NCBI GenBank assembly: GCA_044223505.1
Contig: JBGALX010000012.1
Span: 26,174 to 90,173, forward strand
Source: Myxococcaceae bacterium
GTDB lineage: Bacteria; Myxococcota; Myxococcia; Myxococcales; Myxococcaceae
DNA: 64,000 nt
Reading direction: 5' to 3'
Every line of letters begins with the position of its first letter. Positions within the stretch are counted from its first letter, which is position 1. The notes under the pieces are model-generated. The model was not told the DNA's origin, did no database searches, and saw only the letters and a list, made by a program, of their open reading frames with translations. Below are positions 26,802 to 29,567 of the stretch, in pieces. The position numbers and the translations under genes are program-made.

Positions 26802-29567
26802 TTACTTCGCCTTCGGCTTGCCGACCTCGTTCATCTCCTTCGTCATCTTGTTCCACTCGGCGTCGGAGATGCCCGTCTCGCCCTTTGCCTGCGCCGCCTT
26901 CGCGTACTTCTCGTAGATGGCGAGCATCTTCTTCGCGTCGGCCGACAAGAGCTGCGAGTTCTCTTTCGCGAACTTCTGCAGGTCCTTCAGCTCGCTCGCG
27001 GCCGCCTGGTTGTCGCTGTCACCCGCGCCCTTCAAGATGGCGTTCTTCAGCTCGGTGCCCGAGATGGAGCCCGCCTTCTTGTTGCCGGCCGCGAGCTTGT
27101 TGAGCTCGGCCGCCATCGTCGAGTCGGCGTACTGGGCCTTGCCCGCGGCCTGCATCTCTTTCTCCATCGTCTTCAGCTCGGAGACGGGGATGCCGGTCTC
27201 ACCCTTCGCGCGGTGCGCCTGGGCGTGCTTCGCGTAGACCTCGAACGCCTTCTTCGCCTCGGGCGACAGCTTGCTGCCGTTCTTGTCGACCCACGCCTTG
27301 ATCTGGTCGAACTCGGGGCCCGCGGCCTTGTTGTCGAGGTCCTTGATGCCGTCCATGATCGCCTTCGACATCTCGGCGCCCGAGATGCTGCCCGCGCCCG
27401 GGTTCGCCTTCGCCAGCGCGTCGAACGCCTTCGTCACGCTCGCGTCCTTCGCCGGAGCCGGAGCCGGAGGAGTCGACGGCTTCTTCGACGCCGCCAGCAT
27501 CTCGGCCTCCATCGTCTTCAGCTCGGAGACGGGGATGCCCGTCTCGCCCTTCGCCTGGTGCGCCTTGGCGTGCTGGGCGTAGATGTCGAACGCCTTCTTC
27601 GCCTCGGGCGACAGCTTGTCGCCGTTCTGCGCGACCCAGTCGGAGATCTGCTTGAACTCGGCGCTCGCGGCCCTGTTGTCGAGGTCCTCGATGCCCGACA
27701 TGATCGCGCGGGTCATCTCTTCGCCCGAGACCGAGCCCTTGCCCTGGTTCGAGGCACCGAGCACGTCGAACGCGGCCTTCACCGTCGCGTCGATCTCAGT
27801 GGCCTGACCGGGGGGCGGCTGCGCCGGCGGCTGCGTGGCCGGAGGCGGCTGCGTGGCCGGAGGCGGCTGCGTGGCCGGGGGCGGCTGCGACGCGGGAGGC
27901 GGCGGCGCCGACGGCGCCTTCGCGTTGCCCATGTCCTTGATGATCTGCTTCCACTCGTTGAGCGGGATGCCCGTCTCACCCTTCGACGCGTGCGCCTGGG
28001 CCGCCTTCTCGTAGATGGCCCACGCCGCCTTCGCCTCGGGCGTCAGCATCTCGCCGTGCTCGGCCATGAACTTCTTCAGGTCGTTGAACTCCTTGCCCGC
28101 GGCCGAGTTGTCGAGGTCGGCGGTGGCCTTCTCGACCGCCGCCGTGAACTCCTTCACGTCGATGGAGCCCGGACCCGAGTTCGCGCCGAGGAGCGCGTTC
28201 ATCGCGTCCATCACGCTCGAGTCGGCGTACTTCGGCGCGCCGGCGGCGGCCATCTCAGTCGCCATCGCGTTGAACTCTGCGAGCGGGATGCCCGTCTCGC
28301 CCTTCGCGGCGTGGGCCTCGGCGTGCTTCGCGTAGACGGCGAACGCCTCCTTCGCCTCAGGCGACAGCAGGTCGCCGTGCTCCGCGACGAACTTCTTCAG
28401 CTGCTGGTACTCGGCGCCGGCTGCGGCGTTGTCGAGGTCCTTCGAGCCCTCGATGGCCGCCTTCACGAACTCGTCGCCCGAGATCGAGCCGGGCCCGCTG
28501 TTCGTCTTGAGCAGCTCGTTGAGCGCCGAGGTCATGCTCGCGTCGGCCGGGCCGGCCGGAGTCCCCGGCGTGGTGGGCGTGGTGCCCGTCGGCGGCGGAG
28601 TCGTCGTCGGAGGCGGCATCGGCTGCGAGCCGCCGTAGCCCCAGTCGAGCGGCAGGTTCGAGTCGACCTCGGACTTGGGGATGTTCGCCCACGGGTCCGA
28701 AGGCTGGGTCGTGCCGGTCTGCGGCGCGGTGGTCGACGACGTCGGCGGAGGCGGAGGAGGAGCCGCAGGCGCCGGAGCCGGAGCCGGAGCAGGCGCCGCC
28801 GGAGCGGGCGCGGGAGCCGGAGGGGCTGCGGGCGGGGGCGGCGCGGCCGGAGGCGGCGGGTTCGCCGCGCGCATCATGTCGCGCACCATGCGGGCGAACT
28901 TGTCCTGCGGGATGCCGGTCATGCCGTCGGCCTTCGAGGCCTCGACCGCCTTCTCGTAGACCGCCCAGACCTTCTTCGCCTCGGGCGACAGGAGCTGGAA
29001 GTTCTCTTTCACCATCTTCTTCAGGTCGGCGAACTCTTTGCCGGCGGCCTGGTTGTCGGTGTCGGAGCAAGCCTTGACGATGGCGTCGGCGAGCTCCTGG
29101 CCCGAGACCGAGCCCTTCGTCTTGTTGTTCTTGAGCAGGTCGTCGACGGCCGCGCCCGACGTCTTGTCGTTGTGCTTCACCGTCGCCGCGCCGCGCATCT
29201 CGCGCTGCATCGCCTGGTAGTCGCGGAAGTCGATGCCCGTCTCACCGGCGCGCTGCGCCTTATGAGCGTGCTTCGCGTAGACCTCGTAGACCTTCTTCGC
29301 TTCGGGCGAGAGCTTGTCGCCGTTCGCGGCGACCCACTTCTTGATGACGTCGAACTCTTTACCGGCCGCCTGCCCGTCGCCGTCGATGGTGCCCTTGGTG
29401 ATGGCGTCCATCATCTCCTGGCCGGAGACCGAGCCGTCGCCGCGGTTGTTCTTCGACAGCTCCTTCATCGCCTTCTGGGCAGAGGTCTCGGCGCGCTCAG
29501 GCCCCTTCGCGATTTCGAGCTTCTTCTGCGCGACGACCTTGTTGTTGCCGACCTGATTCGTAGCCAT
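26802..29567 (-). CDS. Large internally repetitive cytoplasmic protein (~8 x ~110-aa repeats)
   Basis: No signal peptide. Repeat core GSVSGQE..DAI.KG..D.DNQAAGKEF.DLKK.V.EN...LSPEAKK...VY.K.A.A..A.GETGIP. Pro-rich spacers. Lys-rich, which is unusual for this GC level. Confidence 0.7.
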   Translation of the reverse strand: MATNQVGNNKVVAQKKLEIAKGPERAETSAQKAMKELSKNNRGDGSVSGQEMMDAITKGTIDGDGQAAGKEFDVIKKWVAANGDKLSPEAKKVYEVYAKHAHKAQRAGETGIDFRDYQAMQREMRGAATVKHNDKTSGAAVDDLLKNNKTKGSVSGQELADAIVKACSDTDNQAAGKEFADLKKMVKENFQLLSPEAKKVWAVYEKAVEASKADGMTGIPQDKFARMVRDMMRAANPPPPAAPPPPAAPPAPAPAPAAPAPAPAPAPAAPPPPPPTSSTTAPQTGTTQPSDPWANIPKSEVDSNLPLDWGYGGSQPMPPPTTTPPPTGTTPTTPGTPAGPADASMTSALNELLKTNSGPGSISGDEFVKAAIEGSKDLDNAAAGAEYQQLKKFVAEHGDLLSPEAKEAFAVYAKHAEAHAAKGETGIPLAEFNAMATEMAAAGAPKYADSSVMDAMNALLGANSGPGSIDVKEFTAAVEKATADLDNSAAGKEFNDLKKFMAEHGEMLTPEAKAAWAIYEKAAQAHASKGETGIPLNEWKQIIKDMGNAKAPSAPPPPASQPPPATQPPPATQPPPATQPPAQPPPGQATEIDATVKAAFDVLGASNQGKGSVSGEEMTRAIMSGIEDLDNRAASAEFKQISDWVAQNGDKLSPEAKKAFDIYAQHAKAHQAKGETGIPVSELKTMEAEMLAASKKPSTPPAPAPAKDASVTKAFDALAKANPGAGSISGAEMSKAIMDGIKDLDNKAAGPEFDQIKAWVDKNGSKLSPEAKKAFEVYAKHAQAHRAKGETGIPVSELKTMEKEMQAAGKAQYADSTMAAELNKLAAGNKKAGSISGTELKNAILKGAGDSDNQAAASELKDLQKFAKENSQLLSADAKKMLAIYEKYAKAAQAKGETGISDAEWNKMTKEMNEVGKPKAK

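Follow-up and report, generated by a model that had tools for sequence, protein, structure and literature searches.

A five-helix tandem-repeat domain with a candidate cation-binding loop, found mostly in uncultured Myxococcota

In eukaryotes, calpain cores and annexins operate with EF-hand modules. TerB (PF05099; PDB 2jxu), a small all-helical domain, carries a D-G-x5-E motif that has been proposed to chelate metals, and MoxR ATPases of myxobacteria have DUF58 and BatA proteins as their canonical partners. Bacterial annexins are known in Myxococcales, and the survey that describes them contains no description of the repeat domain considered here (PMC3894181). We analyzed a 64-kb stretch of the genome of a Myxococcaceae bacterium (contig JBGALX010000012.1, hereafter the window), in which a minus-strand gene at 26802..29567 encodes a 921-amino-acid (aa) protein made up largely of tandem repeats. 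The repeat is a ~107-aa five-helix domain that was previously undescribed, and each copy carries an acidic loop that locally resembles the loop of an EF-hand. Tentatively, and with somewhat less than even confidence, we propose from sequence conservation and predicted structure that the protein may be a multivalent Ca2+/cation-binding helical scaffold, holding one divalent cation per domain at four conserved acidic residues (D2/D37/D39/E46).

Motif anchors together with a profile built from the repeats delimit exactly seven copies of ~107 aa, each matching the profile with an E-value of 1e-37 to 1e-43, and a profile search of the 64-kb window found no further copies in any frame. The repeats, which are 36-65% identical in pairs, share the motifs D-x-D-[NG]-x-A-A, LSPEAKK, VY.K.A and GETGI at equivalent positions. 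A preceding sequence-only reading of this DNA had picked out these motifs and had described about eight repeats of ~110 aa set apart by Pro-rich spacers; the motifs and the approximate repeat length stand, but the count is seven, and although Pro-rich linkers do exist, there are just three of them (101, 37 and 8 aa), since repeats 1-2, 3-4 and 6-7 abut directly. From the N-terminus (all features on the minus strand), a polar non-repeat segment of 27 aa without a hydrophobic signal (MATNQVGNNKVVAQKKLEIAKGPERAE; 29487..29567) is followed by repeat 1 (aa 28-134; 29166..29486; profile E 1.7e-43) and the abutting repeat 2 (aa 135-241; 28845..29165). Linker 1 (aa 242-342; 28542..28844) is Pro/Ala/Thr-rich, contains tandem-repeat DNA and carries the short motif DPWANIPKSEV..LPLDWGYGG. 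Repeat 3 (aa 343-449; 28221..28541) and the abutting repeat 4 (aa 450-556; 27900..28220) come next, both matched by the profile as is repeat 2, and then linker 2 (aa 557-593; 27789..27899), which is built of (PPPATQ)n with an 18-nt period in 4.6 copies. Repeat 5 (aa 594-700; 27468..27788) is joined by linker 3 (PAPAPAKD, aa 701-708; 27444..27467) to repeat 6 (aa 709-815; 27123..27443), which is abutted by repeat 7 (aa 816-921; 26805..27122; profile match). Repeat 5 is a recent duplicate of repeat 6, with 65% aa identity and ~80% DNA identity, and the two appear in the DNA as a tandem period of 345 with 1.9 copies and 80% matches. In all, flexible Pro-rich linkers string together three abutting pairs and a lone, recently duplicated copy.

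The open reading frame (ORF) runs uninterrupted from an ATG at 29567 to a TAA stop at 26802-26804, and its GC content at third codon positions (0.94) is in the range of genuine genes in this window of roughly 70% GC. The start codon is supported by the N-terminus MATNQV, which recurs in the closest homologues (P0018, P0019 and P0096), and a purine-rich AAGGGGA lies 5' of the ATG. Unbroken frame, third-position GC and an N-terminus kept in homologues establish the 921-aa ORF as real; the minus strand is an addition to the earlier account, which gave none. Read on the plus strand, 26802..29567 yields an Arg/Leu-rich antisense product, which we rejected. Lysine makes up 10.5% of the protein, compared with 3.1 ± 1.8% in the 48 other ORFs of the window, and arginine just 1.3%, while the overall charge is near neutral (109 K+R vs 117 D+E). 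Two compositional claims made at the outset thus hold: the protein is Lys-rich in a ~70% GC genome, and it has no signal peptide, a hydrophobic N-terminal segment being absent. The same reading had called the protein cytoplasmic; it could act there or be exported by a non-classical route, given that a lipoprotein signal or RTX or LysM modules are found in some relatives. Searches of plasmid and phage collections by tblastn returned no match to the repeat protein.

Structure prediction of one repeat, a check that the earlier reading had suggested, gave a confident result. The AlphaFold2 model, made for the repeat 6 unit with an alignment of 85 repeats, is a five-helix bundle (predicted local distance difference test score, pLDDT, 90.5; predicted template modelling score, pTM, 0.84) with helices at residues 3-13, 22-33, 43-58, 61-79 and 87-100 in the numbering of this model. 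The acidic loop, KDLDNKAAG-PE, occupies residues 34-44 in the same numbering. A predicted beta-bridge pairs residues 20 and 59, that is, it joins loops 1-2 and 3-4, so that the acidic loop is left unpaired, unlike the loops of an EF-hand pair. A two-repeat model covering aa 707-921, and hence repeats 6 and 7, was likewise confident (pLDDT 94.3, pTM 0.85), and AlphaFold2 therefore sets adjacent repeats in a fixed orientation.

The repeat falls outside known domain families, as had been suspected from the letters alone. Neither Pfam, NCBIfam nor PADLOC gave anything at family cutoff for the whole protein, Pfam gave nothing at family cutoff for the 85 individual repeats, and comparison of the repeat with the PDB by sequence and by fold returned no significant match. 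Sub-threshold family matches (Nsp1_C, TerB, DUF4795, HMG_box, tape-measure) were scattered and were dismissed as compositional. A word-indexed search retrieved 29 close homologues with 33-48% identity and 4-11 repeats each, all of them hypothetical proteins from Myxococcota or Myxococcaceae metagenome-assembled genomes (MAGs); a profile search of the same database gave short fragments only, and a genome-collection search with the whole protein found two MAG loci only. An exhaustive profile search of 1.84 billion representatives yielded 185 clusters at E<=1e-3, 155 of them at <=1e-10, with one to ten repeats per protein and with Deltaproteobacteria and Eremiobacterota MAGs among the named sources. 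The domain family is rare. Most of its members come from uncultured Myxococcota and some from a few other phyla, with 1-11 copies per protein.

Relatives differ in what accompanies the repeats. In 10-repeat relatives we observed a conserved non-repeat central domain of ~140 aa (..GQLGSLFPG..EKDPLNLAEALAEFKK..), found in P0001-P0015, P0020 and P0022 between repeats 5 and 6 or between repeats 2 and 3, and P0027-P0029 carry another extension, C-terminal and 150-240 aa long. The window protein has neither the central domain nor the C-terminal extension, its long linker holding just the DPWANIP..LPLDWGYGG motif.

Conservation was measured over 488 unique repeats from 176 proteins, in the numbering of the two-repeat model. 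Of all features, the acidic loop noted earlier in each repeat is the best conserved: D37, D39 and E46 each persist in 98% of the repeats, as does Y72, and D2 in 100%. The remaining highly conserved positions are A65 (99%), L12 (97%), G83 (96%), A43 (91%) and G86 (90%). The conserved polar residues of the repeat are four acidic residues and one tyrosine, and the helix 2-3 loop, together with its immediate flanks, accounts for three of the acidic ones. Each domain would possess one conserved acidic site, composed of the invariant aspartate at the domain start and the D-x-D-[G/N]-x5-E motif of the helix 2-3 loop. By up-down topology, D2, the helix 2-3 loop and the conserved helix 4-5 loop, G-x-T-G, should lie at the same end of the bundle. 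Such a site might bind a divalent cation, most likely Ca2+, with a local geometry like that of an EF-hand in a different fold. With seven such domains, the protein would bind or respond to Ca2+ as a multivalent scaffold in which rigid two-domain rods are linked by extended polyproline-like spacers.

That the acidic loop is EF-hand-like had been raised as a question, and as a local likeness it is borne out. The top matches of a PDB profile search were centrin EF-hands, at E-values (0.27-4.5) that are not significant, and the alignment (..EMadaIikgtkDlDnqaAgkEF.. vs ..ELQEMIDEADRDGDGEVSEQEF..) places D37, D39, [G/N] and E46-F at EF loop positions 3, 5, 6 and 12-13. The predicted helices end on either side of a 9-residue loop, just as around a 12-residue EF loop, and the positions that fit are strongly kept: D at 3 (98%), D at 5 (98%), G (44%) or N (39%) at 6 and E at 12 (98%). 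The canonical EF loop of 12 residues takes its oxygen ligands from positions 1, 3, 5, (7), 9 and 12, has Gly at 6 and is hydrophobic at 8. The repeat departs from it at position 1, which is T (74%), I or A, and at positions 8 and 9, where Ala is found in 79% and 91% of the repeats, respectively, and the paired loops with a beta-bridge of an EF-hand pair are not found in the repeat. That the loop works like an EF-hand loop is our hypothesis.

A more conventional explanation is that the repeat truly belongs, as a divergent form, to one of two known helical families that bind cations, the EF-hand pair or TerB. Besides the centrin matches, it could draw on the D[G/N]x5E spacing that is common to both families, on weak TerB matches in 14 of the 85 repeats (best E 0.005) and faint precomputed ones on many homologues, and on one relative (P0037) with a borderline EF-hand_7 match of 30.0 bits inside its repeats, of which no stretch passes alone. 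All of the Pfam matches, however, fall under the curated cutoffs, the whole window protein reaching 13.6 bits for TerB PF05099 against a cutoff of 24.4, and hhalign, run with the 85-repeat profile, gave calmodulin a probability of 0.5% and TerB, whose sequence we verified to be PDB 2jxu, one of 0.2%. Neither EF-hand structures nor TerB appeared among the fold matches listed, and the beta-bridge leaves the acidic loop unpaired. The hhalign comparison led us to reject both memberships, and we filed the domain under neither family; this explanation is improbable.

Partner domains in relatives provide a further line of evidence for a cation-binding role. We surveyed 54 relatives with substantial non-repeat sequence. 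Annexin is fused to the repeats in four of them (P0111, P0118, P0131 and P0140; best E 5e-40), calpain-type Peptidase_C2 in two, one of which also has RTX repeats, LysM in three, the C39-like peptidase Peptidase_C39_2 in three and transglutaminase TGL in one; the remaining matches fall within the repeats themselves and seem spurious. The informative fusions divide about equally between Ca2+-dependent modules and papain-fold enzymes. The window protein itself gave no match to annexin (PF00191). The parallel between these fusions and eukaryotic EF-hand modules is suggestive only.

Several points weigh against a cation-binding scaffold. A recognizable partner domain is present in just ~11 of the 54 multi-domain relatives, and the association with Ca2+ modules therefore rests on about six proteins. 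EF-hand position 1 is Thr, Ile or Ala instead of Asp, and positions 8 and 9 are Ala; the hhalign probability against calmodulin was as low as given above; and no EF-hand is found among the 25 most recurrent of the 58 Pfam families matched by the 85 repeats. The clustering of D2, D37, D39 and E46 is deduced from the helix topology and not from model coordinates, and the invariant acidic residues could instead be helix caps or a protein-binding surface.

This last point leads to the main rival, a possible though less favoured explanation, in which the repeat is a non-metal structural or adaptor unit that provides protein- or polymer-binding modules for an envelope, matrix, cytoskeletal or condensate scaffold, its conserved acidic residues serving folding, helix capping or partner binding. 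The rigid tandem packing (pTM 0.85), the variation in copy number from 1 to 11 with recent duplication, the Pro-rich linkers and the strong preference for Lys over Arg would all suit such a protein, and the LysM, peptidase and transglutaminase partners act on polymers. It leaves unexplained, however, why near-invariance among the polar residues is confined to four acidic ones and a tyrosine, concentrated in one loop, and why annexin, calpain and RTX partners recur, and no partner gene is conserved across the family. We retain the cation-binding scaffold as the preferred reading; the domain, although structurally distinct, is one more uncharacterized helical repeat domain, with a plausible candidate for a cation-binding loop.

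A bolder form of the cation-binding proposal, which we consider rather unlikely, is that the repeat constitutes a new Ca2+-binding fold, a single unpaired EF-like loop in a five-helix bundle, that would stand in for EF-hand modules in bacteria and could be exported independently of Sec. Bacteria would use this fold either as a fusion to annexin cores and proteases of the calpain type or in arrays of several sites, such as the window protein. As regards export, a Sec-like or lipoprotein-like N-terminus is present in just ~3 of 173 family members (for example, P0125), and 84 of the 164 members that start with Met show the pattern M-x(1-3)-[IV]-polar (MTKIQ, MATNQV, MKINSG and others), followed by a Ser/Thr-rich, Glu-poor segment. 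These N-termini may be a non-classical export signal or simply disorder. A Ser/Thr-rich, acid-poor N-terminus in half of the members recalls type III secretion substrates, and exported members might act outside the producer, for example in myxobacterial predation.

The gene immediately upstream offered a different functional lead. A MoxR gene (29730..30731, minus strand; AAA_3 E 3.6e-60) lies 162 nt upstream of the repeat gene, and the sequence-only reading had noted this spacing (as ~160 bp) and put the protein forward as a candidate MoxR client or scaffold, co-transcribed with the AAA+ ATPase and remodelled by it or scaffolding it. The spacing and the shared strand are as described, the MoxR is bona fide, and no sigma-70-like promoter was found in the gap between the two genes by a scan that is weak for myxobacteria. 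The functional half of the claim did not survive comparison with other genomes. A search for homologues linked to MoxR, which had been suggested as a check, found no MoxR within ±8-10 kb of nine other family members on different contigs. The window encodes the MoxR that is conserved in myxobacteria, sharing 83% identity with that of M. xanthus, where MoxR, DUF58 and BatA are contiguous; the two closest relatives (MoxR 96% and 91% identical) have MoxR, one small ORF, DUF58 and BatA, and no repeat gene (operon comparison loci L014, L015 and L016). In the window, DUF58 (20112..20990, minus strand) lies 8.7 kb downstream of MoxR with BatA/VWA beside it (about 18019..20110, minus strand), so this MoxR already has its canonical partners. 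The 8.7-kb block that splits the operon contains the repeat gene, an ATP-grasp gene, an extracytoplasmic function (ECF) sigma factor cluster and an ORF at 21052..21999, and the outer flanks of the split operon are syntenic with the 96% relative (L014). Because DUF58 and BatA continue on the same strand 8.7 kb further along and synteny is otherwise kept, the adjacency to MoxR is a lineage-specific rearrangement. The repeat protein has no Pfam match to VWA, DUF58 or any other known MoxR-partner domain, and the gene that directly adjoins the repeat gene, in convergent orientation, at four related loci is not MoxR but one of the 21052 type. A MoxR client is largely refuted and, in our estimate, highly improbable.

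On the other side, an R2K.3 ATP-grasp gene (25843..26706, minus strand; PF14243 E 7.4e-17) lies 95 nt downstream of the repeat gene. R2K.3 enzymes are predicted protein-modifying peptide ligases whose targets are not known (PMC4431377), and the repeat protein, which is unusually Lys-rich and encoded next to such a gene on the same strand, might be imagined as a substrate to which peptide tags are added. No ATP-grasp homologue was found in the other family loci by tblastn or in gene tables, however, and a strong hairpin stands between the two genes. This perfect 11-bp, GC-rich hairpin (26753..26777, minus strand) begins 24 nt past the stop codon of the repeat gene, is of the CCCCUCUCCCC-UCG-GGGGAGAGGGG type without a following U-tract, and lies in a region that folds at -37 kcal/mol over 71 nt (z = -3.2); a simple terminator scan passed over it because it has no T run. 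It is probably a transcript end separating the repeat gene from the ATP-grasp gene, and could be either a terminator or a repeated palindromic element. An Rfam search of 25.5-31 kb returned no match. We give the substrate explanation very little credence. No secretion-system, MoxR or ATP-grasp partner is conserved across the nine family contexts, and MoxR and the R2K.3 ATP-grasp, the nearest neighbours here, are unrelated to the repeat gene, which stands alone.

A recurrent neighbour does exist in a subset of the family. The plus-strand gene at 21052..21999 encodes a 315-aa protein with no assigned family and is displaced by ~4.8 kb from the repeat gene, and its orthologues, which are 41-67% identical by tblastn, are the immediate convergent neighbours in the four related loci (L007, 11717-12781; L008, 11685-12764; L009/L011, 10493-11476 in L009; L010, ~5423-6079). 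The 315-aa protein begins with a disordered stretch rich in Lys and Pro and ends in a conserved domain of ~150 aa with the invariant pattern H.F.WDVS.AM.C.IPH...GRE...TVDW...GND, and searches of Pfam, NCBIfam and the PDB gave no match; it may be an unrecognized enzyme.

Also inside the segment that splits the MoxR operon is a plus-strand block (22157-25839) whose first ORF, of 368 aa, has no matches. Next come genes for an ECF sigma factor at 23310-23891 and, at 23888-24772, for a protein that may be an anti-sigma factor or BamD-like; the block closes at 24769-25839 with a secreted protein that is rich in Cys and Gly and whose N-terminus resembles a signal. Models of anti-phage systems in PADLOC-DB matched none of the repeat protein, MoxR, the ATP-grasp and the 21052 and 22157 ORFs. 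Divergent from MoxR, a plus-strand gene at 30764-32188 encodes a lipoprotein-like protein with a C-terminal Laminin_G_3 domain (E 1e-22) and a long low-complexity (GGTAGG)n tract, which accounts for long spurious ORFs in alternative frames and on the complementary strand (30743-31927 and 30976-31602). An 887-aa protein with five Big_5 domains and CopC is encoded at 38870-41533 (minus strand). At 55742-60756 on the minus strand, a DUF4175 protein (1063 aa) is followed by a Peptidase_MA_2/TPR protein in synteny with L015, where a bpMoxR/bpX5 pair adjoins the same two types of gene. The 56-60 kb genes have an AT skew similar to that of the repeat gene and were considered as repeat paralogues, but they encode these DUF4175 and Peptidase_MA_2/TPR proteins. 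Genes for an FHA-sigma54 activator of the NtrC type and a Ser/Thr kinase with a PEGA domain (11425-12744 and 14738-16414, both minus strand) are of types that recur near family members on other Myxococcota contigs (L004, L008, L012 and L017), a recurrence that probably reflects just the taxon.

Defining the family, which comprises ~185 clusters at 50% identity and has no Pfam or NCBIfam model, would annotate several hundred hypothetical proteins of Myxococcota and other MAGs. Should the loop bind Ca2+, the domain would represent a new structural solution to cation binding and, in bacteria, an equivalent of the EF-hand modules by which calpains are regulated and with which annexins pair; it would then bear on calcium sensing and use in bacteria and on where their annexin and calpain proteins came from. 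The adjacency to MoxR in one genome is no evidence for a client relationship.

Set against the systems with which we began, the locus shows likeness and difference in each case. Like the MoxR-DUF58-VWA/BatA systems, it places a gene next to that for MoxR, but the adjacency is not conserved and the repeat protein has neither VWA nor DUF58. With TerB the repeat shares its small, all-helical nature, and the sub-threshold matches to the TerB hidden Markov model land on the D-[G/N]-x5-E motif of the repeat, whereas a TerB domain holds two copies of the motif and the repeat one. Resemblance to the EF-hand (PF00036 / PF13499; centrin, calmodulin) extends to a helix-loop-helix with a 9-residue loop, to Asp at positions 3 and 5, Gly/Asn at 6 and Glu-Phe/Tyr at 12-13, and to a G-S-I-S-G-x-E-M stretch that resembles the linker G-x-x-L-T-x-x-E preceding EF-hand 4 of calmodulin, but the repeat is a ~107-aa five-helix bundle with an unpaired loop and not a four-helix EF pair. 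Finally, there is an analogy of architecture: just as calpains have penta-EF-hand domains and annexins have S100 partners, relatives of the window protein fuse the repeat to calpain-type protease or annexin cores; the repeat has no detectable homology to these eukaryotic modules, and the window protein carries neither protease nor annexin.

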